A stretch of 64,000 bases of DNA from a virus (IMGVR_UViG_3300042691_020140:1-64000); one strand, 5' to 3'. Positions 24,066 to 63,046 are shown, counted from the first letter of the stretch. Made by a program: numbers and translations. Notes: generated from the letters alone by a model not told the origin.

Positions 24066-24110
24066 AATCCTCTAAGGGGGAATTTCTTCCCCCATCCTTT
24101 CTATAGTTTA

Positions 24111-45983: not shown

Positions 45984-46425
45984 GTTGCTCATCCGTATCG
46001 AAATTGAAAATTGAAAATTGCAAAATTCAAAATTCAAAATTCAAAATACACGCACGATCGGGGATGCAGCGTAGCTTAACATAATTTTTTGGGGAGTCTG
46101 CGAGTCCCCCATTTTTTATGTCAACGTGGCCAACCCGCCCACCCCCGCCGTCCCCCAAGCCCAACCGCACGCGATTAGGGTTAAGCCCCTGACACTTTTT
46201 ATGATAGGGCCAGAGAGCATTTGGAAAATTCAGAATTTGAAAATAAAATCTGAAATTTTTAGGGGACTCTACGAGTCCCCCATTTTTAAAGTCAGGGGTG
46301 TCCGGCAGTCCCCCAAAAACTCGTCAAAAATTGCTCAAAATTGCTATTGCATTTTAGTTTTAAGTGTGCTAAAATGAAAATATCAAAAAGTAATTCGACT
46401 TTTTGACTTTTGCGGAGATTTTGCC

Positions 46426-46593
46426 ATGACTATGCTGATTTTGGGCGTGATGACGGTGTTTGTGATTCTTTTGGGCGCAGCTACTCTGATAATAGCTAAC
46501 GAGTACGGCGCAAGTCAGAAAATGGTTACGCTATGGTTGTGGGCGATTTTGTTGTGGGCGATTATGTGCAAAATCATAATTGACATTATCTAA
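46426..46593 (+). CDS. 55-aa two-TM membrane protein (not in the ORF track)
   Basis: GGAG RBS; own TTGCAT-N17-TAAAAT promoter; MTMLILGV...IIDII. Confidence 0.7.
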   Translation: MTMLILGVMTVFVILLGAATLIIANEYGASQKMVTLWLWAILLWAIMCKIIIDII

Positions 46594-46837
46594 AATCAAA
46601 ACCCAAAATTTGGGGGAGTCGCAGCTCCCCCATTTTTTATGTAAATGAGTTTTTGGGGGAGTCGAAGAGTCCCCTATTATTTTTCAATTTTAGGGGTGTC
46701 CGGCAGTCCCCCAAAAATCAGCATCTGGCCTGGCTGCCGTCAAAATCTAAAAATTCGTTATTGACATTATTTTCAATCTGTGCTAAAATTCTTTTGTGGG
46801 GCTACTCTTGCCTTGCGTCTATAGCGGAGATTTTATT

Positions 46838-47131
46838 ATGTCAATCATTACGCCTGAAAACACAATCGCCGTCTTTACCGGCGAAATTGCCGGTATCATC
46901 GTGTACACGGTAAAGCATTGGACCTTTGCCGAAATTGTCGCCCGTGTTTCTGAAAATGAGTTTTCGGAATACCGCACCGGCACAATGACCGCCATGCCGG
47001 ACGATTTGTCGGTTATCGATTGGACGGTATACTACGCAGAATCGTGGCAGATGCAAGAAATACCGGTAAATAAATTTTTCGCCGAAAATAAAATTTACGC
47101 TACAAATCAATACAATGAAATAATTTTCTAA
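46838..47131 (+). CDS. cassette hypothetical protein
   Basis: TTGACA-N17-TAAAAT promoter at 46761; GGAG RBS. Confidence 0.7.
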   Translation: MSIITPENTIAVFTGEIAGIIVYTVKHWTFAEIVARVSENEFSEYRTGTMTAMPDDLSVIDWTVYYAESWQMQEIPVNKFFAENKIYATNQYNEIIF

Positions 47132-47392
47132 AATTCAAAATTCAAATTTCAAAATTCAAATTTGGGGGAGCCACAGCTCCCCTAAAAATGTGTGGATTTT
47201 TGGGGGGCTCGAAGAGTCCCCCATTTTTGATAGATTTTAGGGGTGTCCCGCAGTCCCCCATTTTCTCTCATCTGGCTCTCATCTAATTCTCATCTAAATC
47301 TATTGCTTTCGCAGCTGACATCTGCTAGAATACCCTCATAGGCTAATTTAATACGTGGGCTCGCCTATGCCCTATTTTCGGAGGCTACTCTT

Positions 47393-47713
47393 ATGTCAAG
47401 CGCAAATCTCTTGGTGACCGTGACCGTCCTGACCGCTTACGAGGCTAGCAGCAAGGTCCTGACTCTGACCGCCATTGACGAGGTCCTGTATGAGCATCGT
47501 CAGCTCATCGTGCCGGTTATCGATGCGGTCAAGGGTACGAAAGCGTACAACACCTTGCCGGTCTTGACTTTCGGTACTGTTATCGTAGTAGCGTCATGGC
47601 GTGATGAGTGCTATACGCTCAAGACCGATACCCATGCGATGTATAGCCACGTCGAAGAATTCTTTCAAGGTCTCTGCTACGACGAGGACGTGCGAAAGAT
47701 ACGGGTAATCTAA
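47393..47713 (+). CDS. cassette hypothetical protein
   Basis: Own promoter; GGAGG RBS. Confidence 0.72.
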   Translation: MSSANLLVTVTVLTAYEASSKVLTLTAIDEVLYEHRQLIVPVIDAVKGTKAYNTLPVLTFGTVIVVASWRDECYTLKTDTHAMYSHVEEFFQGLCYDEDVRKIRVI

Positions 47714-48083
47714 AATAGCCCGAAAAATGGGGGAGTCGCAGCTCCCCTATTTTTTATGTCTACAATTTTTGGGGGACTGCGGGAGTCCCCTATTTTTAAT
47801 TTTGGGGGAGTCTTCGAGTCCCCTATTTTTTATGTCAATTTCTCCCTCCGTCCCGCCCCCGTCTCCCCCAAGCCCCCTATTCCTGCGACATCATCAAACC
47901 CATCGCACTTATACACTAAGGGAGCTCGTGAGCATTTTTTGGGGGACTCCAGCAGTCCCCCAAATTTTTTTCTTTCTCATAATCTTCTCATCTAACTCTC
48001 ATTTTCGCAGCGGTGTTTTTATGGTATTATATAAGTGTAGACAAAACCGGCGGACGAGCTACACCGCCACCCTGGGGGATGCC

Positions 48084-48377
48084 ATGAAGCATCAACGCAA
48101 ACCGGTTAAGCCGATTTATGCCATCGTGTTTATCAACGAGGATGGCACCGGCGGTATGTATTTTGATGACTATCTGCATGTTGTCCGTGGACTGCACGGT
48201 ATACGCAAAGATAGTCCTGAAATGAAGCTCGGTATCGTCAAGTTTGACCTGTATCGTCGCCGTGTATCGTTGCTCAAAGTGCATAATTATGGTATAGATA
48301 CCATAGACGATACGCAACCATTTTGGACAAAAGAGACTATGGTAAAATTACTCTGCTTCACACCACCGACGTACTAA
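48084..48377 (+). CDS. cassette hypothetical protein (true start MKHQRK)
   Basis: GGGGGA RBS; the upstream part of the track ORF 47727 is translated repeat. Confidence 0.65.
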   Translation: MKHQRKPVKPIYAIVFINEDGTGGMYFDDYLHVVRGLHGIRKDSPEMKLGIVKFDLYRRRVSLLKVHNYGIDTIDDTQPFWTKETMVKLLCFTPPTY

Positions 48378-48540
48378 AACGACCACAGAAATGGGGGAGC
48401 TACGGCTCCCCCATTTTTTATGTCTACAATTTTTGGGGGACTCGAAGAGTCCCCTATTTTCTAGTTTTAGGGGTGTCCCGCAGTCCCCCATTTTTTGCTA
48501 TGATTTTAGGGGAGCCGTAGCTCCCCCAAAACCGTGTCGG

Positions 48541-48708
48541 TTACATAGTACCGATTACTACGAACACAAACAACGCCCACATCAAAAGAAACGCCAAGTA
48601 CCCATGACGCACACGGCTATCCACATCGTACTCGATGACAATTGACCAGGACCACACGACGATACCCATGATTACGATAGTAGCCACACCCAAAGATGCC
48701 ATCAACAT
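48541..48708 (-). CDS. 55-aa two-TM membrane protein in an inverted cassette (not in the ORF track)
   Basis: MLMASLGV...VIGTM; minus-strand TTGTAT-N17-TATACT promoter and reversed boxes. Confidence 0.7.
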   Translation of the reverse strand: MLMASLGVATIVIMGIVVWSWSIVIEYDVDSRVRHGYLAFLLMWALFVFVVIGTM

Positions 48709-48970
48709 GTCCGTAGCCTTTCTGTTAACTTAATCCTCTTACAGTATACACTATGTCGGCTGCCGATACAAGGGATTTAGATGAGAGTTAGATGAGAGAA
48801 AAATGAGAGAAAATGGGGGACTCGGGCAGTCCCCCAAAAATCAAAAATCTAAAATTGAAAATTCAGAATTCATTAATCAAATTCTAATCTAAAATGCTTG
48901 TATTGTATACTTGCATATGGTACAATTCTAGTGTAATCAAATGATTACATGCTAGTAGCGGAGGTCGGCT

Positions 48971-49105
48971 ATGGTGTGCGATATTTGCGGCGGCGATGTT
49001 TCGAGCGACAACGTCCACGAGGAGTCCTGGTCGCCATTTTTCGTCTGTTGCTCAGAGTGCGGCGGCGCAGCTGAGGACGTGCTAGACGACGACAACGCCG
49101 AGTAG
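48971..49105 (+). CDS. 44-aa acidic Zn-ribbon peptide (not in the ORF track)
   Basis: GGAGG RBS; CDIC...CSEC. Confidence 0.7.
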   Translation: MVCDICGGDVSSDNVHEESWSPFFVCCSECGGAAEDVLDDDNAE

Positions 49106-49366
49106 TACAATCAAGCGGAATGGGGGAGTTACGGCTCCCCCATTTTTTATGTCAATAAATTTTTGGGGGACTGTGGGAGTCCCCTATTTTTGATAGATTT
49201 TGGGGGTGTCCCACACTCCCCTAAAAATTTTAGGGGAGACCCAGCTCCCCCATTTTCTCTCATAATTCTCTCATCTAATTCTAATCTAATTTGCTTGCGT
49301 GTGACCTGGTTATAGTGTATACTAGTATTGTAATCAAATGATTACATCGCAGCGACGGAGGATGTC

Positions 49367-49582
49367 ATGGGTGAGTATACTGTAGTAGTGGTGAGTGCCA
49401 TCGAGGGTGTCGTGTGGGTGCGTGAGAGTGTGACGATAGCACATCCTCACATGGTAGACGCTGTCAAGATTGCCTACGAGGAATCACTTGCATCTGAGTG
49501 TCAGTGCGTTGTGCATGTGTATCGCAATCGTCACTTGCAGCGGTCAATAACGATTAGTCATCCTGAGTTAGAAAAAGAGTAA
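49367..49582 (+). CDS. cassette hypothetical protein
   Basis: Own promoter; GGAGG RBS. Confidence 0.7.
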   Translation: MGEYTVVVVSAIEGVVWVRESVTIAHPHMVDAVKIAYEESLASECQCVVHVYRNRHLQRSITISHPELEKE

Positions 49583-49988
49583 GAAAATGGGGGAGTCGCA
49601 GCTCCCCCAAATTCTAAAAATGGGGGAGTCCCAGCTCCCCTATTTTTTATGTCTATTAAATTTTAGGGGACTGCGGGAGTCCCCTATTTTTAATTTTGGG
49701 GGAGTCTTCGAGTCCCCTATTTTTTATGTCAATTCCTCCCTCCTACCCCAACCCCCCGCAAGCCCCCCTAGCGTTGGATAACGTGAACGCCCTAGCACTT
49801 ATACACTAAGGGAGCTTCAGAGCATTTTAGGGGACTCTTCGACTCCCCCATTTTTTGCAATTTTTGGGGGAGCTGCACTTCCCCTATTTTCTCTCATCTT
49901 TCTCTAATCTAAATTACTACTATTCGCAGCGAACATAGTGTATAATACTATTGTAATCAGATGATTACACGATAGCTAAGGAGACGGT

Positions 49989-50216
49989 ATGTATACTCTC
50001 AAAGTGGATGGCTACACGCTCGGTCAATGGAACACGATAGCAGAAGTGGAAGTTATTTTCAACGTGTTACCGTTAATGCTCAACAAAATGACCGCCGGTG
50101 ATGGCTACTTTGCCGGTATCTATGCGGCGGACAATTCTTTGGTCAAGTGGGATACGATACACGCCCCTAAGACCAACGACGACGACGCAGAAGATTTGAT
50201 GCTCGAATTCAACTAA
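49989..50216 (+). CDS. cassette hypothetical protein
   Basis: Own promoter; AAGGAG RBS. Confidence 0.7.
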   Translation: MYTLKVDGYTLGQWNTIAEVEVIFNVLPLMLNKMTAGDGYFAGIYAADNSLVKWDTIHAPKTNDDDAEDLMLEFN

Positions 50217-50432
50217 GCACGGCAAGAATGGGGGAGTCGCAGCTCCCCCATTTTTTATGTCTACAAAATTTTGGGGGAGTCGAAGAGTCCCCTAAAAACT
50301 TAGGGGTGTCCGGCAGTCCCCCATTTTAGCTGCACAGATTACTCATAATTCTCTCATCATTTACTCATACTATTGCGTATGAATGTAGTGTATACTTAGT
50401 ATTGTAAGTTAGCTTAGATATGGAGGTTACCG

Positions 50433-50621
50433 ATGGCGACGGCACAAGTTAAGCGCATCCGCATAGATGGGGTGCATGTATCAATGTGGCGGTATGGTAG
50501 CAAAGAATGGTCATTCACCATCTACGGACCTCGTGAGACGCAAGAGCTGTTGGTTAAGCGTATGGACTATTGGAAAGCTTACCGTACTGCTAAATTGATG
50601 ATTAACCTCTATCACAAGTAG
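50433..50621 (+). CDS. cassette hypothetical protein (basic)
   Basis: Own promoter; GGAGG RBS. Confidence 0.7.
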   Translation: MATAQVKRIRIDGVHVSMWRYGSKEWSFTIYGPRETQELLVKRMDYWKAYRTAKLMINLYHK

Positions 50622-50862
50622 TACACCGGCGGTTTTTTAGGGGAGCTACAACTCCCCTATTTTTTATGTCTATCAAATTTGGGGGTCTCGAAGAGTCCCC
50701 TAAAAATTTAGGGGTGTCCCGCAGTCCCCCAAAAATCAAAAATACAAAATCGAAAATTGAAAATTCATTAATCTAATTTTAATCTAAAATGCTTGCATCT
50801 GCTATATACACATGTTATAATGACTATGTAATCAAATGATTACACGATATACGGAGGCTACG

Positions 50863-51141
50863 ATGTACAACGTTACAATTCACGGCGACTGTCGCACTAG
50901 CGACGATGGTTCGGGCTACTCATTCGTATTCGACTTTCAAGAGGAACGCCTCGGTATGACTTGGGTCGTCGCCGGTATGAAAATTCGTGAAACTATGACG
51001 TGGCAAGAAATTCCTAGCGGATCCGTCGTCAACGTGGAAATGCGTGTGTGGACGTTGGAAAAAGGCACTATCGCTAGCGTGCCTGGCAAGATGATAAAAT
51101 TGCCGAACGGTGAAAAATCGTACCTAGAATTAATCGGCTAG
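50863..51141 (+). CDS. cassette hypothetical protein
   Basis: GGAGG RBS before ATG 50863. Confidence 0.7.
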   Translation: MYNVTIHGDCRTSDDGSGYSFVFDFQEERLGMTWVVAGMKIRETMTWQEIPSGSVVNVEMRVWTLEKGTIASVPGKMIKLPNGEKSYLELIG

Positions 51142-51306
51142 GTATCAAAGAAAATGGGGGAGTCGCAGCTCCCCTATTTTTTGTGGTCGTCGTTTTTGGG
51201 GGAGTCGAAGAGTCCCCCATTTTTTCTCATCTTTCTCTAATGTTGGCTGCAAGTTTTTCATGGTACAATACTTGTGTAGGGTCAATCTTGACCCGTGGAG
51301 GATGTC

Positions 51307-51552
51307 ATGAACCGCCAAAAATTCGCTCAGTTCCTAGAGGACACCCGTTGCCACTTGTCCGGCAAGGCACACAATCTGACCGACCACCGGCTAGGTGAAA
51401 TCGACCGGATGCTCGACAATGCCCACAATCTGATTTTCGCCAACGATGCCGGTTATTCTCGGGCGGACATGGACACCGCCGTTGCTATGGTTCGGTATGT
51501 CCGTCGCCGTCTTGACCCGTTGCCGTGGGTAACTCTCGACGACATAATGTAA
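51307..51552 (+). CDS. cassette hypothetical protein
   Basis: GGAGG RBS before ATG 51307. Confidence 0.7.
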   Translation: MNRQKFAQFLEDTRCHLSGKAHNLTDHRLGEIDRMLDNAHNLIFANDAGYSRADMDTAVAMVRYVRRRLDPLPWVTLDDIM

Positions 51553-51723
51553 TCTAGGTACTTTTGGGGGAGCTACGGCTCCCCTAAAAGATGTGAAATT
51601 TTTGGGGGACTCTTCGAGTCCCCTATTTTTCCTCATCGTTCTCTAATGTTGGGGCTTTCGCCCTATGATATAATACAAATAGGTCAAGTTGACCCTAGCA
51701 CTTATCAGTATAAGGAGCATAAG

Positions 51724-51966
51724 ATGTATCAGGTAGTTATCGAATTCCGTGATGCGTACATTGAGACTGAGATGGAAAAGTTGACAGATTTGCGTGACAT
51801 AATATCAGAGACTATTCCGAATTATATTCAGTATGCTGAGCTGTATCTCGGCGAGCCCGTCCGTAAGGCACACGCTACAATATCGTCTAATGGTGTACTT
51901 ATCGGCGTTAAGTTGTTTTCATTCTATCGTCAAAAGTTATCTGAAAAGTTGGAGGTCTTCATCTAG
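51724..51966 (+). CDS. cassette hypothetical protein
   Basis: AAGGAG RBS before ATG 51724. Confidence 0.7.
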   Translation: MYQVVIEFRDAYIETEMEKLTDLRDIISETIPNYIQYAELYLGEPVRKAHATISSNGVLIGVKLFSFYRQKLSEKLEVFI

Positions 51967-52201
51967 TGATTACCCTACCCCTAATGGTTGCAGCTATCCT
52001 ACTGGTAGTAGTACTCGATACTAAATAGTCCCTAGACCCTCGCTAGTAGCTAGCGGGGGTCTTTTATTGTCAAGTAGATTTGGGGGTCTCTTCGAGTCCC
52101 CTATTTTCTCTCATCTAGCTCTAATCTAATTCGTGCATAGACGTGTGATATGTTTGTTATAATAAGTATGTAAGTTAGTTTAGTAGACAGGATGGTAACA
52201 G

Positions 52202-52558
52202 ATGCGAATACGCAAGCCAAAGTACTATTACGTGATTCTGAATGAGCAACGTGCTAACGTTGACAGTAGCGTAGAGGCGTATGAGGATTTTTCAGAGCGT
52301 GTAAAAAGTGTGCCTATTCTTGTGTGGAAACGCACGCCGTTTACTATTGAGCAGCTTAGCCGTCTCGAGTGTGAATTAAACGGTATTGATATGTGGCAAT
52401 TTACGCAAATTGACGAGAATTTTTACGGCAATGAATTGCCACGTCATATCCATCAAAAGTGGCAATACGGCGAATATATCAGAGAAGAGGAAAAATTCCG
52501 TAAGGCGGTACGCAAGCAATTAGCAGACTATAAGAAAAAACATCCTATAGTCAAATAA
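52202..52558 (+). CDS. cassette hypothetical protein
   Basis: Own promoter; AGGA RBS. Confidence 0.7.
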   Translation: MRIRKPKYYYVILNEQRANVDSSVEAYEDFSERVKSVPILVWKRTPFTIEQLSRLECELNGIDMWQFTQIDENFYGNELPRHIHQKWQYGEYIREEEKFRKAVRKQLADYKKKHPIVK

Positions 52559-52734
52559 TCACCGGCGGTATTTTTGGGGGAGCTAAGGCTCCCCTAAAAA
52601 ATTACGAAAAAATTGGGGGACTCTTCGAGCCCCCTAAAATCCAAAATCTAAAATTCAATTTTCTAATCTTGCTCTCATAATTATGTACTATAATACAAAT
52701 AGGTCAAATTGACCATATGGAAAGGCGAACGGCG

Positions 52735-53076
52735 ATGAAGATGATACTAATCTATGTACAGGATGAGCATGACATTTTTAATCTTGTGTATAGCACACAC
52801 AATGACACAATGCCGGACGAAACAATACACGATATTGCACGCACACACGCACGGCACGCATGTACTGAGAATCGTTGGGATTGGACTATGATACGTATTG
52901 TTAAGGCACACGTCTCGCCGTCCACGCAAGAATTACCTACATTGTCAGTAACATTCATGATAGACGTTGAATATACGCTAGATTACAGCGACGGCGAGGA
53001 AACAATGGAATTAGCAGACTACATAAAACAAGTACGGCGTGATTATTCAGACGGTATAGGTAATCCATTTAAGTAA
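52735..53076 (+). CDS. cassette hypothetical protein
   Basis: Own promoter; AAAGG RBS. Confidence 0.68.
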   Translation: MKMILIYVQDEHDIFNLVYSTHNDTMPDETIHDIARTHARHACTENRWDWTMIRIVKAHVSPSTQELPTLSVTFMIDVEYTLDYSDGEETMELADYIKQVRRDYSDGIGNPFK

Positions 53077-53230
53077 ATATCGGCGGAATTTAGGGGAGTC
53101 GCAGCTCCCCTAAAAAATTACTCAAAATTTAGGGGACTCTTCGAGCCCCCCATTTTCTCTCATCTGGCTCTCATAATTATTGTTTATAATACAGATAGGT
53201 CAAAATTGACCACACAGAAAGGCGGACGGT

Positions 53231-53437
53231 ATGAAAATTGCACAAATGCTACTGAATGACGCATCATTCACGCAACAGGATGTCGAGGAATTCTACGCAG
53301 ACTACCAACCAACCGAGCAAGATATTGCCGACATGCAACGTGGATGGGACGAGATTGAGACCAACTTGTCAGAGGTCGATTATGTCGAGCAATTCGAGAA
53401 CGCCCTGCTCTATGGTGATGGCGATTTGCCGTGGTAA
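53231..53437 (+). CDS. small, highly acidic protein
   Basis: 68 aa with 17 D/E against 2 K/R; own promoter. Confidence 0.7.
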   Translation: MKIAQMLLNDASFTQQDVEEFYADYQPTEQDIADMQRGWDEIETNLSEVDYVEQFENALLYGDGDLPW

Positions 53438-53587
53438 TCTAACCGCCGGACTTTTGGGGGAGCTGCGGCTCCCCTAAAAAATTTGCAAATTTGGGGGGCT
53501 CGAAGAGTCCCCCATTTTTTTTCTCATCTGGCTCTCATAATTATCGTGTATACTATAAATGGTTAGATAACAGTATAGGAGGTTAGC

Positions 53588-53848
53588 ATGTTTGGTATGA
53601 TGGATTTGGTAAGTTTGGCAAAAGATGCGATTGTAGGCATTAATCAATTAGGGACGTATGGCGAGCGACGTTATGAGGCAAATACGCCTGAGGCTATCAT
53701 GGCTATTCACCACTTTTTTGAGAATCGTATGTTTGGCGGTTATGCTACGGTATACCTGACGTGTGGATGTCAGTACATGTTCAACGCCCGTGATAGTCTG
53801 ACTAGTGAAAGCTTGTGCGAGGGTCACGCAGAAACATTAGACATGTAA
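53588..53848 (+). CDS. cassette hypothetical protein
   Basis: AGGAGG RBS; CGC...CxxH. Confidence 0.7.
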   Translation: MFGMMDLVSLAKDAIVGINQLGTYGERRYEANTPEAIMAIHHFFENRMFGGYATVYLTCGCQYMFNARDSLTSESLCEGHAETLDM

Positions 53849-55244: not shown

Positions 55245-55527
55245 ACCTGCCGTGTATGATGATAAGATTTATGACTATAAGGAAGTTTCACCGCTTGACT
55301 TTGTGGATGGTACAGAGGATAATTATCGCTCGCTATGTGCTAACTATGCTATCAAGTATCTTAAGAAGCGTGGCCTGCGTAGTGCGATGTTCCAATTTTG
55401 GATTATCATGGATGAGACAGGTGAGCTGCTAGATGTAGTAGAATATACTTACATGATTGACCGAGCCACGTATAACAAAACCGATGTTTCTTGCCCATCC
55501 TCGTGTATGTTTCATCCCGACCGATAG
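55225..55527 (+). CDS. hypothetical protein whose C-terminus duplicates part of 57872..58576
   Basis: GAGGAG RBS; ends VSCPSSCMFHPDR. Confidence 0.68.
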   Translation: MTKVTIKPAVYDDKIYDYKEVSPLDFVDGTEDNYRSLCANYAIKYLKKRGLRSAMFQFWIIMDETGELLDVVEYTYMIDRATYNKTDVSCPSSCMFHPDR

Positions 55528-55708
55528 CGTAGAAATCCCCAAAGAGTAAAATCGGCGGGGATTTTTATTGTCAAGTAAAAATAGGGGACTCTTCGAGCCC
55601 CCCAACTTCTCTCATTTTTCTCTCATCATTCTCTAACGTTACGGCGTATGTGGTATGCTATAATAAAGATGGTTAGGAAAGCAGTAGTAATAACGAAAGG
55701 TCAAGACA

Positions 55709-56308
55709 ATGAGCAAGAAACATGTGGTGCGTGAGATGGATTTCGGTTTCAAGACTGACGTGCAATTGATTTGTGCCGTCACCGGTGCGAGTGCTGACAA
55801 AGTGACAAAGCCACTTGCGTACCTGTCTGAGGCTAGTGAAGCAGAATTGTCACAATGGTTTACGCCTACGCAAATCACACGCCTCAAGTCTGCTTTTGAG
55901 CTGTCTAAGCGTCGTGCCGTATCGTTGCCCACGCAAATCCGTGCCCCTGCTGATGCAGCTACGTACCTGATGGCTAACTATCAAGACAAGATGCAAGAGC
56001 ATTTTATCGTGTTGTGTCTGAATACGAAAAATCGCATCATCTCGACGGTAGAATTGTACAAAGGTGCATTGAACACTAGCGTAGTACGCACCGGCGAAGT
56101 ATTCCGTGAGGCTATCAAAGTTAACGCATGTGCTATCATCATCGCACATAATCATCCGAGTGGTGATATTACGCCGTCTGCTGAGGATGTCAGTACTACC
56201 CGAGATATTGCAAGTGCCGGTAAATTGTTAGACATCGATTTACTAGACCACTTGATTATCGGGCATGGTCAATGGACTAGTCTGCGTGAGCGTGGCTTAG
56301 GATTCTAG
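55709..56308 (+). CDS. radC: RadC-family JAB/MPN domain protein
   Basis: QEHF-x-VL-x-LNTKNRII, HNHPSGD-x-TPS-x-ED, LLDHLII. Confidence 0.92.
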   Translation: MSKKHVVREMDFGFKTDVQLICAVTGASADKVTKPLAYLSEASEAELSQWFTPTQITRLKSAFELSKRRAVSLPTQIRAPADAATYLMANYQDKMQEHFIVLCLNTKNRIISTVELYKGALNTSVVRTGEVFREAIKVNACAIIIAHNHPSGDITPSAEDVSTTRDIASAGKLLDIDLLDHLIIGHGQWTSLRERGLGF

Positions 56309-56475
56309 ACCACGCCGGTTTTTGGGGGAGCTACGGCTCCCCTAAAAATTTCGGCAAAGTTGGGGGGCTCGAAGAGTCCCCCATTTTCTCTCATCATTCT
56401 CTCATACTATTCTGTTTGTAGACATGCTATACTATAAATGGTTAGGAAAGCAGTAGCAGTAATAAGGAGACAAAC

Positions 56476-56667
56476 ATGAAGCAGGTACAGGACATGGAGC
56501 AGACCATTAATCGCAAGGTTATCAATCCGTTTAAGACGATTTTGGACCTTATGACGATGGGGCACTCGTATCGTGACGGCGCAATCATGCGTGTGATGCT
56601 CGCCGGTTATCTCATCAACTGGTTAGAGGGGTATCGCCGATACTGGGATAGCCAAATCGGGCGGTAA
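56476..56667 (+). CDS. cassette hypothetical protein
   Basis: AAGGAG RBS; own promoter. Confidence 0.68.
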   Translation: MKQVQDMEQTINRKVINPFKTILDLMTMGHSYRDGAIMRVMLAGYLINWLEGYRRYWDSQIGR

Positions 56668-56822
56668 ATTCCACAGGATTTGGGGGAGCTGCGGCTCCCC
56701 TAAATTCATCGCCAAAAATGGGGGGCTCGAAGAGTCCCCCAAATCCTCTCATTATTCTCTAATGTAGCACACACTTTTTGTATGCTATACTATAGATGTA
56801 AGTTAGTTAGATAGGAGATTTT

Positions 56823-57038
56823 ATGAAGGCTAAACTTCGTATCGGTGATGATGGTCGGTTAGAAAGATACTACGCTACACATTGTCAGACATGTGGGATT
56901 GAGCAACGTCACTTGCGTGCGTTTGGCTTCCCACTAAAGTTTTATGACTTTTATCACTACTGCTTCTTCGATGGTCACAGAGGTACTAAACATATTTGCA
57001 AAGTGTGTGAACACAAGTATTCGCAATATCAGCCATAG
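56823..57038 (+). CDS. small Zn-finger protein
   Basis: CQTC...CKVC; AGGAG RBS. Confidence 0.68.
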   Translation: MKAKLRIGDDGRLERYYATHCQTCGIEQRHLRAFGFPLKFYDFYHYCFFDGHRGTKHICKVCEHKYSQYQP

Positions 57039-57048
57039 GAGTTACAGA

Positions 57049-57252
57049 ATGAGTACAAGATTTCGTATAGGGCGTGAATTGTTTGTGGTGGAATCTCCTA
57101 GCAAAAAATGGATAGTACTAATTGTGCTTGAAGTACCGAACAAAGGATGGGTAGTTAATATTACTAGGGATATGGAAATTGTGGAATCTCAATATTGGTT
57201 TGACTCTCAAGAGCAAGCCGGCGAATTCGCCGAGAAGTGGATGCCCACGTAG
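57049..57252 (+). CDS. hypothetical protein (start MSTRFR)
   Basis: AGGAG RBS before ATG 57049. Confidence 0.62.
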   Translation: MSTRFRIGRELFVVESPSKKWIVLIVLEVPNKGWVVNITRDMEIVESQYWFDSQEQAGEFAEKWMPT

Positions 57253-57408
57253 TCTTTGAGGCTTAAATCAATACCCGATGCAGCTTAGGCTACGTCGGGT
57301 ACGATTTTTAGGGGACTCTTCGAGCCCCCCAATTTCTCTCATCTTTCTCTAATGTTTCTAAGCATATACGCATGGTATACTAAGTATGTAAGTTAGTTAT
57401 AGGAGGTA

Positions 57409-57660
57409 GTGATGATTAGCGTTTTGATTGTCGGTGGTGACCGCTCGAGCATGGTAGACGGTTTGGCGTATGACTTGCATAAGGGTATCATTTTCTTGCG
57501 ATTCAAGACGACGCAAAAATGGTACGCAAAGCATGTCGGTTTGGAATACATCATGGAAGCTATTGACGTGTGGATGGATGAGAATCAGTCATTTGGCAAG
57601 TGGGCAAATCAGAATCACATTACTAAGAATATGACATTTTTTAGTGATGTAGACCTGTAA
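57409..57660 (+). CDS. KTSC-domain-like protein
   Basis: SSMV-x3-AYD...LRFK...Y...SFGKWAN. Confidence 0.6.
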   Translation: MMISVLIVGGDRSSMVDGLAYDLHKGIIFLRFKTTQKWYAKHVGLEYIMEAIDVWMDENQSFGKWANQNHITKNMTFFSDVDL

Positions 57661-57871
57661 GCACCACGGAGTTTTGGGGGAGCTGCGGCTCCCCTAAAAT
57701 TTTTGTCGATTTTTGGGGGACTCTTCGAGACCCCCATTTTCCTACCCGAGCTGCCAGCTGGCCCACGGCCACTCTCATCTGTCTCTCATTTAATTCTAAG
57801 CACTTATTAATATAGGGCGGTCGTGAGCATGTTATACTATGAATGTAAGTTAATTATATGTGAGGTGTGAG

Positions 57872-58576
57872 ATGCGTTTTGTAGTAGCTTCAAAAAATGA
57901 CAAATTGTCCCGTGGTAAAAATGTCATTGCCACGTATAGCCGGACCGGTGTTTCTTGTCCGTCGTCGTGTATGTTTCATCCCGAGCCCGATGCGTATGCC
58001 GTTGAGAAGCGTAATGCTTTCGGACGTGTCACAACGTGCTACACGTTGAAAGGCAACACACGCTATCATCAAAAGAGTCTTACATCTATCGATGCTCTTA
58101 AGGTGCGTGTAAGTGTTAAGAAGTTTCTTGATTTACGTAATGCTAAACGTGGTAAAGGTGTCACGCAAGCTAAACGTATTGATACAATCCGGTGGAATGT
58201 GTCCGGCGATGTTTTTGACGGCAATCTACCTAACGTTGAGTATATTGACGCAATTGTTTGGGCGTGTCAACAATTAGATAACGCAGGCATTAAATCGTTA
58301 GGTTATACACACGGATGGCACTTGCCTGAATTGCAAGCCCTTAAACAATGGTTTATGGCTTCATGTGATACAAAAGAAGAGGTATTGCAAGCTCAAGAGA
58401 TGGGATGGATGACCGCCCTCGTTATCGGCGATAATACAGACGTTAGCGGTCTTAAAATCGGTAAGTGTCCAAATCAGCTGACAAAAGGCAAAATTAAATG
58501 TGATGAGTGTATGCTATGCTCGCCCTCAAGCTTGCCAAAGTTTAGCTCTCGTGTGGTAGGTTTAAGCTATCACTAG
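57872..58576 (+). CDS. Cys-rich Gp88-like (radical-SAM-like fold) protein
   Basis: SCPSSC...CY, RWNVSGD, GYTH, ASCD, CP-x-Q...CxxCxxC. Confidence 0.6.
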   Translation: MRFVVASKNDKLSRGKNVIATYSRTGVSCPSSCMFHPEPDAYAVEKRNAFGRVTTCYTLKGNTRYHQKSLTSIDALKVRVSVKKFLDLRNAKRGKGVTQAKRIDTIRWNVSGDVFDGNLPNVEYIDAIVWACQQLDNAGIKSLGYTHGWHLPELQALKQWFMASCDTKEEVLQAQEMGWMTALVIGDNTDVSGLKIGKCPNQLTKGKIKCDECMLCSPSSLPKFSSRVVGLSYH

Positions 58577-58891
58577 ACGGTATATCCTCGTGATACCCCT
58601 AACGCCAGTTAGGGGTATTTTTATTGTCAAGTGGAATTGGGGGGCTCGAAGAGTCCCCTAAAACTACGGATCTACTCTATTTTATACTACAATAGATAGT
58701 AGTAAATTATTCAAAAGTAGAAAAGAAAAATTCTCAAAAATTCAAAATTCAAAATCCAAAATCTAAAATTCAAATCTCAAACTTCGCTGCACTTGTACAC
58801 TAAGGGACTTAAGGAGCATTGGAATTTTTTAGATCCGTAATTTAGGCACAGAAAAGCCCCAGACTTGGGGCCGTTCTGTAAAATTCAAATT

Positions 58892-59137
58892 CTAATCTTC
58901 GCTTACGTAGATTGAGCCTACCTTTTTAAACGTACTAGGATTATATTCCTTACCGACATCCCATGTAGCGTATTGCTTCTCAATCATGGTAATAAGTACG
59001 TATGTGTATAACTCCGGCGGGGTTTCTTTTCGGAACATCTCCGCCCTACGTTCTGCATAGTAAGAAGAGCTACAACGACTGTACCAATACCGTTTATAAT
59101 CGGGCCCGATAATCCAAATGTTAAATTCAAACTTCAC
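58892..59137 (-). CDS. hypothetical protein
   Basis: GAGGA RBS; follows 59139..59762. Confidence 0.6.
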   Translation of the reverse strand: MKFEFNIWIIGPDYKRYWYSRCSSSYYAERRAEMFRKETPPELYTYVLITMIEKQYATWDVGKEYNPSTFKKVGSIYVSED

Positions 59138-59138
59138 T

Positions 59139-59762
59139 CTAGTATTCCTCCTCTTTACTTCGGTATTCCTCTAATAAGTCATGAATAGCAAACTCAATCC
59201 CCTTAGCGATAACTGTACGACAGATGTTAGATACTAAGTCTGTTGTGTTGACCGCCTTAACAGCATGGCTCTCTAACTCAAGTGCATCGAATGATTCTAC
59301 ACCTGCATATAAGTGCGGCATATATACACCGCCGAGTAATCTATGCAGTAGAATCTTACGCTGTCCCTCTGTAATACACTCCCAGACAGACATGAATCTA
59401 AGCTCTGCAAATTCGTACACTAGGTCAACATCAAGCCATTCACGCTGATTATCGTTTCGCCACCGTAATCGCTTAGATAAGTTGTGTAAGAATTCATAGG
59501 CGATACCCTGTAAGTTTCTTGGCGTAAACTCTACACAGTACATATTAGCATCTGTAATAACAAACTTAATACCCAAGTCACCAAACGCATTAGCAAATGA
59601 CTCCAACTCACGGACAAAGAACGCCTTGTTAGCTTTCTCTACAACTGAAGCGTTGTAGTAAGGACAAACTTTGATAGAATACTTAGCGTCTGAAATCCAA
59701 GTCTCCCTCTGAATACAAAACTTCTGCAAATCCAAAATTGAAAATTCAAAATTCACTTCCAT
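59139..59762 (-). CDS. hypothetical protein
   Basis: AGGAGG RBS; minus-strand TG-TATACT promoter with reversed CTCTAAT boxes. Confidence 0.7.
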   Translation of the reverse strand: MEVNFEFSILDLQKFCIQRETWISDAKYSIKVCPYYNASVVEKANKAFFVRELESFANAFGDLGIKFVITDANMYCVEFTPRNLQGIAYEFLHNLSKRLRWRNDNQREWLDVDLVYEFAELRFMSVWECITEGQRKILLHRLLGGVYMPHLYAGVESFDALELESHAVKAVNTTDLVSNICRTVIAKGIEFAIHDLLEEYRSKEEEY

Positions 59763-59947
59763 AACTACCTCCTATAAATCTCGACTACACGTTTAGTATA
59801 GCACAGATAATCACCAGATTACATTAGAGCCACGTTAGAATTAATAGGGGACTCTTCGATACCCCCATTCTCTCTCTCATCTAATTCTAATGTTGACATT
59901 TCTAATGTATGCTATAATACAAATGGGTTAAGTTTTAGTAGGAGTTA

Positions 59948-60796
59948 GTGATGATTACTAAGTTTGTGTTCACCTCAAATGGTGCGGGCGGGATGAATGT
60001 TGTCGTCAATGGTGAGAATGTCGGTGCTATGTACCCTGATACGACTGGCATGTACGAGCTTTATCAAATCACCGATGTTGACACCGAAAACGAGAGTTTG
60101 AAAGTCAGCTACAACGCTATTGATTTGCGTAAGCGTATGACTACTAAACAGGCTGTCGAAGAAATGCTTAAGTGGAACACTGGACGGCATATGTTAGATA
60201 GTGGCGGTTATGGTAATCGTGGATGGGAGCGTTTGCAGGGCGTTGATTTAATGGCACGTCCTGAAGCTGTTATCGATGAACATGGTTATACGCAAGACTT
60301 GTTTCACTACCTGATTGAGCGTGTACACTTCTGTCAAGAAGCACAAGAATACTTCGATAAGGTGGACGCTGAGAATCCTGACTTGTCATATGCTGAGATT
60401 CTTAAGAAGCTCTATGATGAAGATGTGATTATCCACAACTGCTCGGGCTTGACTGCTAATGAAGATAATACCCTGTCACAGGACTTCATTTGGCATAGCG
60501 TAGAAGTCAAGTTGCCACAGTGGGATGATTATGAGACTATGACTATTATTCAATCGCACAATGGTGCAGATATTCGGGGCGGTTATTCTAAGCCATTCTT
60601 CTTTATGACTGAGTACGAAAACATCTTGTTAGATATTAATCGTGCTTGTGTATACTGTGATAGCTGTCATACTAACTGGTACAGTGATGATGGTTCTAAC
60701 ACATGGGAGAGTGATGACGATGGGGCGTGTGATTGGACTAACAACTGGAATGGCACAAACTTTGTATGTGCATGTGGCGGAGTAATTAAGGCATGA
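59948..60796 (+). CDS. phage hypothetical protein (acidic, C-terminal Cys motifs)
   Basis: NTGRHMLDSGG, HNGADIRGGY, CxxC; own promoter. Confidence 0.75.
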   Translation: MMITKFVFTSNGAGGMNVVVNGENVGAMYPDTTGMYELYQITDVDTENESLKVSYNAIDLRKRMTTKQAVEEMLKWNTGRHMLDSGGYGNRGWERLQGVDLMARPEAVIDEHGYTQDLFHYLIERVHFCQEAQEYFDKVDAENPDLSYAEILKKLYDEDVIIHNCSGLTANEDNTLSQDFIWHSVEVKLPQWDDYETMTIIQSHNGADIRGGYSKPFFFMTEYENILLDINRACVYCDSCHTNWYSDDGSNTWESDDDGACDWTNNWNGTNFVCACGGVIKA

Positions 60797-61149
60797 AAAT
60801 CACGGAATATGTAGCGAAGCTAGTAGACGGTCGTATTGACGGATGGTATCTCGAAAATCCCTATGTAGTGCTTCGCTACATAGGGTATGAGGGGGAAGAC
60901 CAAGACCCTTTTATTATGGAGACTGACTGGTATAGCATGGCTTGGTGTGCGTTGATTCAAATTTTGCCCGACGATGTTATTGTTAATATCATGTGCGAGC
61001 CTAACTGGTTTATGAAAGCTGCACACCAAAAGTACTATGAAGTGGTAGCAGAGGTTGAATTAATCTCTGGCGTGTGTTATAATGTAGATGTGTTCGATGG
61101 TGATATTATTCTAGTGAAGAAAGGTGATGTAGATGAATGTACCGATTAA
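60793..61149 (+). CDS. hypothetical protein
   Basis: ATGA overlap. Confidence 0.65.
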   Translation: MKITEYVAKLVDGRIDGWYLENPYVVLRYIGYEGEDQDPFIMETDWYSMAWCALIQILPDDVIVNIMCEPNWFMKAAHQKYYEVVAEVELISGVCYNVDVFDGDIILVKKGDVDECTD

Positions 61150-61435
61150 CGTGTCAGCAATGACAAAGACAGAGCGCAAAGCTCTAATCAAGATTTTGCA
61201 GGGCAATTTCACAGACCGTCTGATTATCCAACTTGGTGATACTATGGTGACTGCTCACGGTTGGGAGTACGCCGAGAATCCATCATGGTACACTCTGTAC
61301 TACAAAGACAAGATGGTACACCAAGACGCTACGTTGGATGAGTTGTTTGATACCGATAACTATATCACGAACGTGGATGATGATGAATTAGATGCAATTC
61401 GAAAATGGTTTGATACATTCCAACCTGAATGGTAA
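61133..61435 (+). CDS. hypothetical protein
   Basis: Coupled; followed by a hairpin at 61440-61468. Confidence 0.65.
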   Translation: MNVPINVSAMTKTERKALIKILQGNFTDRLIIQLGDTMVTAHGWEYAENPSWYTLYYKDKMVHQDATLDELFDTDNYITNVDDDELDAIRKWFDTFQPEW

Positions 61436-61608
61436 GCAGTGGCCCTCGGTGCTAGCATCGGGGGCCATCTCTTTGGCTTAGAAAATAGGGGAGTCGAAGA
61501 GTCCCCCATTCTCACTCATCAAATTCTCATTTTACTTTTGCCTAAAGTAGTGTATAATAAAGATGTTAGCAAATGACTAACACAGATTCGATTAGAGGAG
61601 TTAGACAG

Positions 61609-62058
61609 ATGGACATCAAGCAGTTTATTCAGGAGATGCAGGCGTTCGAGCGTACACTTAACAACGTGTACGACGAGATTGATTCAAGCGTGGTAGACAG
61701 TTTGGAAAACGAGATTGACGGATTGCGTGATTCTCTCCGTGACATCGAGAGTACTGTCAGCGATTGGTCAAATCAGCTTGACGAGGTGCGTGACGAATTC
61801 AACGCCCTCAAAGGGATGGTCAATGACATCGAGGATGAGCCGGTCAAGACTGAGATTGTGCTTATGTCAGATTGGCAGATGCAACAAAAGAAGACCTTTG
61901 TCCGCAACAACTTGCGTAACACAGAGCTTCTGACATCAATGCTCAAAGCAGACCCACAATCATTTTGGGTGACTATCGCTACCTGTATCGTAGAAGACCC
62001 ATTCCATTGTTCGGACCTCGCTGATTTTGTGGTGAATTATGAGCAGTACATTAAGTGA
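61609..62058 (+). CDS. acidic coiled-coil protein
   Basis: GAGGAG RBS before ATG 61609; heptad pattern. Confidence 0.7.
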   Translation: MDIKQFIQEMQAFERTLNNVYDEIDSSVVDSLENEIDGLRDSLRDIESTVSDWSNQLDEVRDEFNALKGMVNDIEDEPVKTEIVLMSDWQMQQKKTFVRNNLRNTELLTSMLKADPQSFWVTIATCIVEDPFHCSDLADFVVNYEQYIK

Positions 62059-62320
62059 TTTGGTGCTGAGCTATCGTGGGACCCCTACCCTTTGTGTGGT
62101 AGGGGACTCCCTCCCACGGGAGCAATGGCTATGGAAGAATTACAGTTTCTTGTCTAAGTTTGCTACGCCTGTCGGGCCACTACCCGAGAATGAAGCTAAC
62201 TTCACAGACAATCTAGCGTTTGTCGTACACGAAATGTTTTGGGATGTCAATGCACAGTTAGAGAAGTATAAGTTGCAGCTAGAATATGCCGGCGGTAATC
62301 TTTATCTAGTCCGTATGTAG
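62039..62320 (+). CDS. hypothetical protein
   Basis: Overlaps the upstream gene; terminator at 62325-62357. Confidence 0.6.
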   Translation: MSSTLSDLVLSYRGTPTLCVVGDSLPREQWLWKNYSFLSKFATPVGPLPENEANFTDNLAFVVHEMFWDVNAQLEKYKLQLEYAGGNLYLVRM

Positions 62321-62464
62321 GCCCGAAGCATCCCTAGAAATAGGGGTGCTTCTTTTTGGTGCAAATATTAGGGGACTCTTCGAGTCCCCCATTTCTTACG
62401 TCAAGCTGCACCGGCCAACAAAAAACCCCTCCCTTTGTGGGGGAGGGGCTTGGGTAGGGCTAGC

Positions 62465-62743
62465 CTACCATTCTAACTTGTTGTTCTGATAGGCGTACAC
62501 GAGAACAGAGCCCTCGGCTTCTGTGATGTGCCCCTTATCTACTGCCAGCTTAACAGCAAGGTCAATGAAAGCACCATCAACAACCACGTCACCATCAAGC
62601 GAGATGTCAAAGTACATTGGCTCTGGATAGTTCTCATAACCGTTGCCCCACAAAGTGATTTCCGAATCACCACGGATGATGTTGTACACAGCCTTAACCA
62701 CAAACTTACCACGGATTTGCTCAATTTGCTCACGAATAGTCAT
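62465..62743 (-). CDS. hypothetical protein
   Basis: AAGGAG RBS; TTGACA-N17-TATACT promoter; terminator at about 62421-62450. Confidence 0.7.
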   Translation of the reverse strand: MTIREQIEQIRGKFVVKAVYNIIRGDSEITLWGNGYENYPEPMYFDISLDGDVVVDGAFIDLAVKLAVDKGHITEAEGSVLVYAYQNNKLEW

Positions 62744-62802
62744 AGCTCACATACTCCTTAATTAAGATTACTCAGTCAGTATAACACACATTCAGTCATT
62801 TG

Positions 62803-62949
62803 TCAACGTCGGCGATTATCTCGCTCGATTGCGTCGAACAGTCCCAAGATACCGATAACTCCCACCACGATACGAACAACCGGAATGAACAACATGATAG
62901 CCAACAATTCCATAACCATGCGTTCACCCTCTGGGCTAAGATAACTCAA
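62803..62949 (-). CDS. 48-aa single-TM protein (not in the ORF track)
   Basis: AGGAGG RBS 8 nt before TTG; TTGCAT-N17-TAGAAT promoter. Confidence 0.55.
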   Translation of the reverse strand: MSYLSPEGERMVMELLAIMLFIPVVRIVVGVIGILGLFDAIERDNRRR

Positions 62950-63046
62950 TACTTAGCACCTCCTTTCTTGATTACATATGTATTCTACCATATATATAAG
63001 CGATATGCAAGTAAATAGCGGCGCTCTCATCTTACTCTCATTTTCG

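Follow-up and report, generated by a model that had tools for sequence, protein, structure and literature searches.

Which kind of genetic organisation underlies a phage region in which small, mutually unrelated genes are separated by near-identical palindromic joints, and by what route do these genes come and go? The region lies in a stretch of 64,000 nucleotides (the window) from the complete 76,099-bp genome of an uncultured freshwater phage (G000), for which a preliminary description had proposed a 17-kb array of cassettes shuffled by recombination at palindromes. G000 represents a novel, uncultured and apparently lytic lineage, and its terminase had no tblastn match among 50,697 cultured phage records. 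The locus is best explained, with a probability of about 0.7, as a hyperplastic small-gene region of roughly 29 autonomous units with composite terminator/promoter modules of the PeSL/PmSL type, the promoter-early/promoter-middle stem-loops of T4-type phages (Arbiol et al. 2010, PMC2839356; Comeau et al. 2014, PMC4122927), plastic by homologous recombination.

Anatomy and confinement of the array

The extent of the array is given by the distribution of its repeats in the complete genome.

46091..62390, + strand: whole array, with 61 G/C palindromes and 35 genes that form roughly 29 units

The pattern GGGG-N10-12-CCCC gave 108 overlapping matches that collapse to 61 distinct G/C palindromes (G4-6…C4-6) within 46091-62390 and a single stray at 24076, against 0.56 +/- 0.92 expected by chance from shuffles; the rest of the 76,099-bp genome holds no sites of this pattern. 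Box dimers (YTCTMAT-N4-YTCTMAT, at most one mismatch) matched 31 times, all within 47265-63041, versus 0.52 +/- 0.73 expected, and terminator-like sites numbered 67 versus 14.3 +/- 3.8 expected. Enrichment and confinement bear out the earlier picture of about 29 small-gene units built on one grammar. The layout claimed for these units was also seen, upstream of 35 genes (roughly 29 transcription units by count): one to four palindromes, CTCT(C/A)AT boxes or AAAATTC heptamers, a mostly TG-extended -10 element, one of the conserved start motifs ATGTAAGTTAG, ATGGTTAGG, GGTCAAnnTTGACC and TGTAATCAAATGATTACA, an RBS of GGAGG type and finally the ORF, 44-281 aa long. The g15 unit serves as example.

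53093..53110, unstranded: type-A palindrome of A2 geometry (T-run, GGGGAGTCGCAGCTCCCC, A-run)
53132..53151, unstranded: type-B palindrome GGGGACTCTTCGAGCCCCCC, preceding box 1 by 5 nt
53157..53174, + strand: box dimer CTCTCAT-CTGG-CTCTCAT, ending 10 nt before the -10, no -35
53185..53190, + strand: -10 hexamer TATAAT, read directly from the sequence
53198..53211, + strand: leader palindrome GGTCAAAATTGACC where the transcript is predicted to start
53231..53437, + strand: g15 cargo, a 68-aa ORFan, 66% identical to its homologue in the relative G001

Nearly every array gene has its own predicted promoter, and at the sequence level there are two kinds. Canonical promoters (TTGACA-17-TAnAAT) are found at g2, g19 and others, several with TG before the -10. 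Boxed promoters, at about 22 genes and mostly with a TG-extended -10, carry two or three CTCT(C/A)AT heptamers with an 11-bp period in fixed helical register, often in place of a -35. The canonical kind (class I) is exemplified by the following element, and the homologous place in G001 has the same promoter type.

54918..55009, + strand: class-I promoter, an AAAATTC heptamer run and then TTGACA-17-TACAAT, predicted for the g19-g20 operon (55041-55527)

In 55 of 57 promoters the last box and the -10 are separated by one of three quantised intervals, 10, 21-22 or 31-33 nt (Rayleigh R 0.92). Measured from the palindrome centre, the -10 elements of G000 and G001 fall into clusters at about 44, 55, 65, 75 and 87 nt (R 0.72, 0 of 5000 null draws). 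These statistics do not come from independent samples, since slippage of the box units together with the shared ancestry of paralogous modules could give the 11-bp quantisation. In 12 of the 57 promoters a 10-nt gap parts the proximal box from the -10, and these have no -35. Both kinds are predicted to be active, the canonical promoters probably as immediate early and the boxed ones as activator-dependent delayed early or middle promoters. Neither an OmpR-type winged helix (PF00486) nor sigma region 4 was found in the G000 genome.

The cargo consists nearly entirely of ORFans, only RadC and DUF7227 being recognisable by family matches above the curated cut-off, and no array protein gave an HTH match.

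55709..56308, + strand: g21, RadC-like JAB domain protein (match above the curated cut-off)
57872..58576, + strand: g26, DUF7227/GP88, a phage-only family to which no function is assigned
55465..55521, + strand: 3′ tail of g20, a duplicate of g26 codons 20-38 (57929-57985) with 79% amino acid identity

Across all lineages g26 is the best conserved gene of the array (54-69% identity). That cargo is mostly unrelated and joints near-identical, as first described, was confirmed by self-tblastn, in which a 19-aa fragment common to g20 and g26 was the only match between cargo genes. The g20 of G001 is without this tail, which is the scar of a rearrangement within coding DNA. The cargo genes are candidates for roles in host takeover or counter-defence.

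Two units, g5 and g27-g28, are inverted and display the full grammar in reverse, sharing a palindrome with the neighbouring divergent promoter; for g5 this is the palindrome at 48815, common to the unit and the g6 promoter.

48509..48835, - strand: complete inverted g5 unit, with palindrome 48815, reversed boxes 48781-48809, reversed promoter and A′ at 48509
48541-48708, - strand: g5 gene, 55 aa

The number of palindromes per joint declines along the array, from mostly three (A1-B-C, range one to five) at 46.1-50.8 kb through mostly two (A2-B) at 51.1-57.7 kb to one B plus the unit's own terminator at 58-62.4 kb, being lower where conservation with relatives is higher. In the favoured explanation a module would consist of one to four G/C-rich palindromes in A/T runs, some of them plausible intrinsic terminators, followed by a promoter. 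This would have either a TTGACA-type -35, an upstream region of A-tract heptamers and often TG ahead of the -10, or a TG-extended -10 behind two or three phased CTCT(C/A)AT heptamers. The unit would end with a conserved leader, followed by a strong RBS and its small ORFan gene.

Palindromes as possible terminators or protein-binding sites

The palindromes differ in type and in setting.

46612..46631, + strand: type-A1 palindrome, an A-run, a hairpin containing a T.G wobble on the + strand, then ATTTTTTAT
47240..47259, unstranded: type-C element GGGGTGTCC(C/G)GCAGTCCCCC, 7 copies, two unlike arms
58639..58658, unstranded: convergent junction with a B palindrome behind the terminator of g26, no promoter following
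62371-62390, unstranded: B palindrome at a second convergent site, no promoter
59823..59891, unstranded: divergent junction of g28 (-) and g29 (+), palindrome 59847-59866 with boxes on either side

Terminator activity is predicted for part of them. Type A1 (8 copies, 46.6-51.2 kb) is a plausible intrinsic terminator, and so are most copies in G000 of type B, which in most units precedes box 1 by 5 nt and folds at -8 to -19 kcal/mol. The A2 geometry (53093..53110) is not that of a terminator on either strand, and type C, which forms a poor hairpin (-6.8 kcal/mol) despite its conserved sequence, is not a terminator. At the g28/g29 junction, a divergent arrangement kept in G001 (PAL at 10881), the palindrome has unlike arms (GGGGACTC / GGGGTATC) and no gene ends there; since it has nothing to terminate, a plain terminator role does not explain all copies. 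Among 484 stem positions scored, 422 were Watson-Crick, 15 G.T, 7 A.C and 40 other, and compensatory changes were absent. Asymmetric variants of B are seen in either direction within the same flank, giving 5 G.U versus 5 A.C on the coding strand, and the exact reverse complement of the g15 B variant is found at 53493-53513 in unchanged flanking context. The central triplet is likewise present in both orientations, and most G001 palindromes have no + strand T tract. Sequence and length are conserved more than pairing, which points to a sequence-specific reader, and type B has the look of an element acting at the DNA level.

Six related lineages (G000, G001, G002, G003/G004, L049 and L080) share the box dimers and the TG-extended -10, and in all six the dimers are confined to arrays. 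Each lineage carries its own G/C palindrome, all copies of which change in concert with the boxes unchanged: G001 has AAGGGGGTCTNAGACCCCCTT and otherwise the grammar of G000, and G002, G003/G004, L049 and L080 have GGGGGTAGGGGG-N-CCCCCTACCCCC in the same grammar.

It is unlikely that the repeats are ordinary terminators and promoters kept alike by selection for strength, with no role in plasticity and with modules merely filling intergenic space. Many palindromes do pass the terminator scan, and indels at modules are expected anyway, since whole-gene indels must end in intergenic DNA and this is here almost entirely module. Selection for strength does not, however, account for uncompensated mismatches in identical sequences, leaves both the concerted change between lineages and the divergent-junction palindromes unexplained, and does not fit the drop from mostly three palindromes per joint to one as conservation rises.

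A possible reading, to be held tentatively and overlapping in part with the favoured one, is that the palindromes, at least B/PAL and C, are mainly sites on double-stranded DNA at which a dimeric phage protein, particular to each lineage, would act as global repressor, activator or boundary factor in a stoperator-like logic, the boxes binding a second, conserved factor with OmpR/PhoB-like geometry and cassette plasticity being a by-product. It would accommodate the uncompensated mismatches, the B variants of either orientation in unchanged flanks, the conservation of type C without a hairpin, the concerted change of palindromes beside constant boxes, the clustered palindrome-to--10 distances of G000 and G001, the service of a single palindrome to two divergent promoters and the general absence of coding-strand T tracts in G001. 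It is weakened by the want of a reader candidate, the genome having no OmpR winged helix or sigma region 4 and the array no HTH, by the B copies at the promoterless convergent gene ends (58639, 62371), and by the palindrome-to-box distance in the G003 clade, which at 3-5 or 28-29 nt is out of helical phase; box slippage and paralogous module descent could moreover by themselves produce the 11-bp quantisation.

Probable exchange of units between relatives

Gene order was compared with G001, the nearest complete relative. The 20-21 genes shared with G000 are strictly collinear, and 14-15 genes found only in G000 and 7-8 found only in G001 were gained, lost or replaced as whole units; at the nucleotide level 44.6-55.8 kb of G000 is without a match in G001. 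Relatives showed no inversion polymorphism, the inverted g27-g28 unit being fixed in G000 and G001.

Exchange junctions could be read in the relatives G003 and G004 (96-99% identical), not in G000 itself. These differ by two indels of two genes each with junctions inside the repeated module, the single G004 module joining the 5′ portion of one of the two flanking modules of G003 to the 3′ portion of the other. The crossover lies within about 15 nt of TTCTCATCTAA (box) in one indel and within about 31 nt, comprising hairpin-1 and the left palindrome half, in the other. Precise chimeric modules with 15-31 nt shared at the crossover are the signature of recombination between repeats and as such argue against ordinary signals kept for strength. 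Differences that are not module-mediated, which such ordinary signals would allow, also exist: g22 and g25 abut in G001 without a module, and there are one SD-to-SD indel and one complex promoter swap.

The chimeric modules support gain and loss of units by homologous recombination in the joints, and recombination would be homologous rather than site-specific. As modules recur every 300-700 bp, exchange between neighbouring or allelic modules would delete, insert or replace whole units, each event leaving a chimeric module, and the RecA and Cas4-like PD-(D/E)XK nuclease encoded by G000 could perform it. Of the accordion gained, lost and inverted at palindromes, gain and loss in the joints stood and inversion did not; aligned relatives differed by whole units as foreseen and not by order breakpoints. 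The fixed gene order spoke against shuffling, and the two G003/G004 junctions nonetheless fell within modules, with crossovers at different places in the module, one in the box and one in the palindrome region, rather than at a single site, and some differences not running from module to module.

No recombinase had been visible in the window, which holds true, RecA and the nuclease being encoded outside it; the tyrosine or serine recombinase that the rest of the genome might have held was not found there either, PF00589 having no match in the complete genome and control genomes being positive. As there is neither such an enzyme nor a reshuffled order, a dedicated shuffling system is not supported. 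An integron- or invertase-like process, in which a specialised enzyme cuts palindromes and excises, inserts or inverts cassettes, is accordingly highly improbable, although palindromes bound the cassette-like units, stand at both ends of the two inverted units, carry the central triplet in either orientation and, where the arms are unlike (type C; 59847), could be recombination chimeras. Besides the missing enzyme, the collinearity of the genes shared with G001, the fixation of the g27-g28 inversion and the position of the two mapped crossovers in different module parts, as homology-driven exchange predicts, weigh against it. Integrons (IntI, attI, attC) likewise have small unrelated genes parted by imperfect palindromes. 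Here, in contrast, IntI is lacking, nearly every gene has its own promoter instead of being promoterless under a common Pc, the short G/C hairpins show no attC architecture, and gene order is collinear in relatives.

More doubtful than favoured is the idea that the palindromes spell out a punctuation code particular to each lineage, which a putative fast-evolving phage protein would read on double-stranded DNA, insulating and co-regulating every early unit in helical register with a second, conserved box-bound factor. Since crossovers need matching modules, the code would define which phages exchange cassettes and, if real, act as a compatibility barcode for gene flow between phages.

Comparison with known systems

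The boxes resemble the E. coli Pho box, CTGTCAT-N4-CTGTCAT, which lies 10 bp upstream of the -10 and replaces the -35. Two or three 7-bp direct repeats with a 4-bp spacer and 11-bp period are found here as well, the heptamers being identical in 6/7 positions (CTCTCAT versus CTGTCAT). The Pho box geometry is however restricted to 12/57 promoters, most boxes lying one or two turns further upstream, about 20 promoters per phage genome carry boxes, and no OmpR/PhoB-family protein (PF00486) is encoded. Stoperators of Cluster A mycobacteriophages are about 24-36 intergenic repressor sites of subcluster-specific sequence, asymmetric, oriented and genome-wide, in temperate phages with a known repressor. 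The array is like them in having dozens of copies of one short site at gene boundaries and concerted change between related phages, but its sites are palindromic and lie in a single region, and neither an integrase nor a repressor-like HTH was detected in G000. SPO1 and T5 have promoter-dense early/host-takeover regions, and the many small early genes with their own strong promoters and terminators are predicted here too; to our knowledge these regions have not been described as repeats of a single palindrome-plus-box module whose palindromes differ by lineage.

Of the known systems the PeSL/PmSL comes closest, here in an unrelated lineage without cultured relative. The suggestion that the repeat grammar had no described counterpart therefore gives way to an elaborate variant of these elements (PMC2839356, PMC4122927), and the analogy to PeSL regions drawn at the same time is upheld by autonomous small-gene units, near-identical joints and relatives differing by whole units. 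In both, a G/C stem-loop stands just 5′ of a sigma70-like promoter, followed by SD and start codon, and the elements cluster in ORFan-rich hyperplastic regions that differ between relatives. The stem sequence is particular to each lineage, the RB49 PeSL consensus also being G(n)-loop-C(n) and stem consensus being lineage-specific in T4-type phages (PMC2839356, PMC4122927). A second class has an activator box for the -35, the Mot box in PmSLs (PMC2839356, PMC4122927) and CTCTCAT boxes here, and indels between close relatives leave chimeric elements, seen here in the two G003/G004 events. PeSLs are defined in part by a stem-loop that terminates transcription and by mini-circles formed during infection; for the array palindromes, terminator activity is a prediction from sequence. 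The region works like PeSLs but stands outside the T4 set, given its 76-kb genome with no T4-like core seen and a terminase without cultured match. No MotA/AsiA analogue was identified in G000. Unlike PeSL/PmSLs, the joints have up to four palindromes of at least three sequence types, palindromes are also found at divergent and convergent junctions, heptamer repeats phased at 11 bp replace a single Mot box, leader palindromes are conserved, and the arrangement is unusually regular with one module per gene across 16 kb.

Repeated units and joints of the array

The unit grammar reported in the preliminary description holds across the 35 genes called in the array, which were grouped into roughly 29 units and whose promoters and terminators are predictions from sequence. 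The pattern GGGG-N10-12-CCCC gave 108 overlapping matches, corresponding to 61 sites at 46091-62390 and one stray (0.56 expected), and none in the rest of the genome. All 31 matches to the box dimer YTCTMAT-N4-YTCTMAT, formed by the CTCT(C/A)AT heptamers that precede the -10, lie within 47265-63041 (0.52 expected), and there are 67 terminator-like sites where 14.3 are expected. The G/C-rich palindromes of the joints are of three types, and their combination divides the array into three dialects:

Palindrome type A: GGGGGAGC-TGCG-GCTCCCC or GGGGGAGTCGCAGCTCCCC
Palindrome type B: GGGGGACTC-TTC/GAA-GAGTCCCCC
Palindrome type C: GGGGTGTCC(C/G)GCAGTCCCCC
46.1-50.8 kb: dialect 1, mostly three palindromes per joint (A1-B-C)
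51.1-57.7 kb: dialect 2, mostly two palindromes per joint (A2-B)
58-62.4 kb: dialect 3, a gene-specific terminator and B

From dialect 1 to dialect 3, conservation of the array in the relatives rises.

Gain and loss of units in related phages

Searches with the terminase and DUF7227 recruited the related phage genomes and contigs G001, G002, G003, G004, L049 and L080, and all of them have the same grammar as the genome studied here (G000), with box dimers confined to the arrays. The nearest complete relative, G001 (77.8 kb), is syntenic with G000 at about 75% nucleotide identity. Its palindrome is AAGGGGGTCTNAGACCCCCTT, and most copies have no T tract on the + strand and are preceded by a gene-specific hairpin; in the other five the palindrome is GGGGGTAGGGGG-N-CCCCCTACCCCC and has TGTAAA/TTTACA hairpins on its flanks.

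A palindrome-driven modular shuffling system had been proposed earlier for this array. Alignment of the relatives bore out the gain and loss of whole units and revealed chimeric modules, whereas gene order was fixed relative to G001 and some differences were not mediated by modules. The 20-21 array genes common to G000 and G001 are strictly collinear, and the genes found only in G000 (14-15) or only in G001 (7-8) are every one present or absent as a whole unit. Promoter and leader types mostly stay with the orthologous gene, the exception being g10, which has a canonical promoter in G000 and a boxed one in G001. The close pair G003 and G004, 96-99% identical, differs in the array by two clean module-to-module indels of two genes each, at which the single module of G004 combines the upstream portion of one of the flanking G003 modules with the downstream portion of the other; the crossovers map to a stretch of about 15 nt (TTCTCATCTAA) and to one of about 31 nt (hairpin-1 and the left palindrome half). 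Such chimeric modules are the signature of the promoter-early stem-loop (PeSL) elements of T4-type phages, for which a chimeric element at the indels of close relatives is known behaviour (PMC2839356, PMC4122927). Array differences that were not module-mediated comprise one complex promoter swap, an SD-to-SD indel of a small gene, the abutment of g22 and g25 in G001 with no module between them, and a fragment of g26 fused to g20. Outside the array, one G003/G004 indel holds an ORF reading like a GIY-YIG endonuclease (motif recognised by eye) and the other an ORF without known identity.

The best-supported reading is that the array is a hyperplastic region like those of PeSL and promoter-middle stem-loop (PmSL) elements, and as such it is a variant of the known PeSL kind. 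Each unit would be autonomous, the repeated joints would serve as substrates for homologous recombination adding, removing or replacing units, and the recombination functions would come from the phage itself, namely RecA and a nuclease. The search for a recombinase beyond the window, which the preliminary description had called for, found no tyrosine or serine recombinase family in the complete genome; beyond the window are encoded PolA, RecA, a PD-(D/E)XK Cas4-like nuclease, ThyX, a pyrimidine-dimer glycosylase and two tRNAs. The data lend no support to a dedicated shuffling machine: the genome has no specialised recombinase, shared genes are collinear, and the crossovers vary in position within the module. 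The PeSL idea, in which repeated regulatory modules are crossover points for swapping small accessory genes, is hereby extended beyond T4-type phages to an unrelated, widespread freshwater phage group, with the natural chimeric-module junctions of G003 and G004 as evidence, and a boxed promoter type and a set of lineage-specific palindromes are defined.

Palindromes, promoters and other conserved elements

The eight A1 copies, with an A-run, a hairpin and a T-run and with T.G wobble pairing on the + strand only, look like real terminators by their layout. The nine A2 copies have reversed flanks (T-run, hairpin, A-run) and, it is predicted, cannot terminate on either strand, and type C is a conserved non-hairpin (-6.8 kcal/mol). 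Stem mismatches of the palindromes are uncompensated, and asymmetric variants of B are found as exact reverse complements of each other within an unchanged flank, with 5 G.U versus 5 A.C on the coding strand. It follows that B has not evolved under selection to pair in + strand RNA. It further occupies a divergent junction, where boxes lie on either side of it (59847), and two convergent ones (58639, 62371). Beyond termination, the palindromes point to a putative sequence-specific reader of double-stranded DNA, since their sequence is conserved more than their pairing, both orientations are found in the same flank, they change in concert between lineages, they are also placed at divergent junctions and they are in helical register with the -10. 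No candidate reader was found by searches for OmpR wHTH and sigma region 4 in the genome or by family searches of the array proteins. A MITE-like selfish spread of the palindromes was rejected, because the copies keep fixed places in one module and are found nowhere else in the genome. The exact B palindrome had no match in IMG/VR and was found in 27 stretches of metagenome contigs, once in 26 and twice in one, none of them array-like; near-identical records may be missing from the collections searched.

About five promoters, among them those of g1, g2, g6, g10 and g19-g20, are canonical: they have a TTGACA-like -35 and upstream runs of AAAATTC heptamers, and TG often precedes their -10. About 22 others carry boxes, 2-3 CTCT(C/A)AT heptamers at an 11-bp period, ahead of a -10 that is mostly TG-extended; many of these boxed promoters have no -35. 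The leaders are of a few common types across units. In 57 promoters from five genomes the last box lies 10 nt (12 promoters), 21-22 nt (34), 31-33 nt (9) or some other distance (2) from the -10, giving a Rayleigh R of 0.92 at the 11-bp period for promoters that are paralogous and boxes that are themselves 11-bp units. The distances from palindrome centre to -10 in G000 and G001 cluster near 44, 55, 65, 75 and 87 nt (R 0.72, again among paralogous modules). Because of this paralogy and the 11-bp box unit, slippage and common descent could yield the quantisation of both sets. The 11-bp phased CTCTCAT heptamers with an extended -10 are a conserved promoter type that is apparently activator-dependent; the boxes have a Pho-box-like geometry, a regulator and a phosphate role being putative only. 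The OmpR wHTH, sigma region 4 and WhiB families are absent from the phage.

Further elements in and around the array are:

44970-44989 / 45628-45647: HNH gene at the array head, with its own TTGACA promoter
46083-46215, 47797-47935, 49691-49830: element of about 130 nt without an ORF, in three copies
47905, 49795, 58789, 63109 (+ strand): motif GCACTT(A/G)TA(C/T)A(C/T)TA(A/T)GG, 4 against 0.84 expected
52056-52080, 54871-54895, 55557-55580, 58613-58637: conserved motif TTATTGTCAAGT, between gene-specific terminators and the B palindrome
63024-63110: array edge, a + strand box dimer and then about 50 nt of TATA/CATA low-complexity DNA

The ORF-less element consists of a B palindrome, TATTTTTTATGTCAA, a C-rich CCCTCC...CCCCC, a motif of the GCACTTATACACTAAGGGAGC type, divergent in copy one, and a further palindrome; a small RNA or a promoter of another type are possible readings. 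The 3' part of the GCACTT motif resembles T3/T7-type promoters (CACTAAGGGAG), and motifs like TAGCACTT are again present in G001 and G003. The resemblance of GCACTTATACACTAAGGGAG to T3/T7 promoters raised the question of a T7-like RNA polymerase; no single-subunit polymerase emerged from the four large ORFs tested, which had no Pfam match of any kind. The TTATTGTCAAGT motif reads TTTTTTATGTC(T/A)A in the first half of the array. Past the box dimer of the array edge an ORF-poor stretch reaches about 63440, and possible identities of this edge region are an origin, a packaging site and an RNA gene. Just downstream of the HNH gene is a 7-bp tandem run (GAAAATT/CAAAATT, 45990-46050); at the equivalent place G001 has 13 tandem CCTTGACC repeats, and G003 and G004 have GTAAGGGATTGTGAGGGG-type repeats in unequal copy number.

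Cargo genes, phage genome and host

The cargo genes of the array are mutually unrelated and nearly all without any family match, the exceptions being RadC and DUF7227/GP88; g6 has a sub-threshold Lar-like match, a lead only. An Rfam scan gave nothing near any gathering score. For the roughly 35 array-driven ORFans, early host takeover or counter-defence is a candidate role. At the 3' end of g20, its final 19 codons (55465-55521) duplicate codons 20-38 of g26, the DUF7227 gene (57929-57985); these codons encode a Cys-rich SCPSSCMFHP motif, and g20 of G001 is without this tail.

The 76,099-bp IMG/VR virus record, of which the window covers bases 1-64000, is rated complete by CheckV. Its + strand encodes terminase, portal, an amidase and several DNA methyltransferases, and a long minus-strand block holds a 1,791-aa ORF, a glycosyltransferase and DnaB. 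Among 50,697 cultured phage records the terminase had no tblastn match and the array no megablast match, and near-identical DNA was present in sequencing runs from 16 studies, mostly freshwater metagenomes. One gene bears on the host:

41416-42570: PnrA/Bmp-like lipoprotein gene, closest cellular homologues 45-58% identical, in Chloroflexota and then Actinomycetota MAGs

This gene gives a weak hint of a host in the Chloroflexota or Actinomycetota. A tRNA-Arg(TCT) and a tRNA-Met adjoin a 473-aa gene (G000 67.9-70.0 kb; L047:5930-7884). An Rpf-like transglycosylase match was below threshold (L047:8112-8501), and a VanW-like gene is also carried by the phage.
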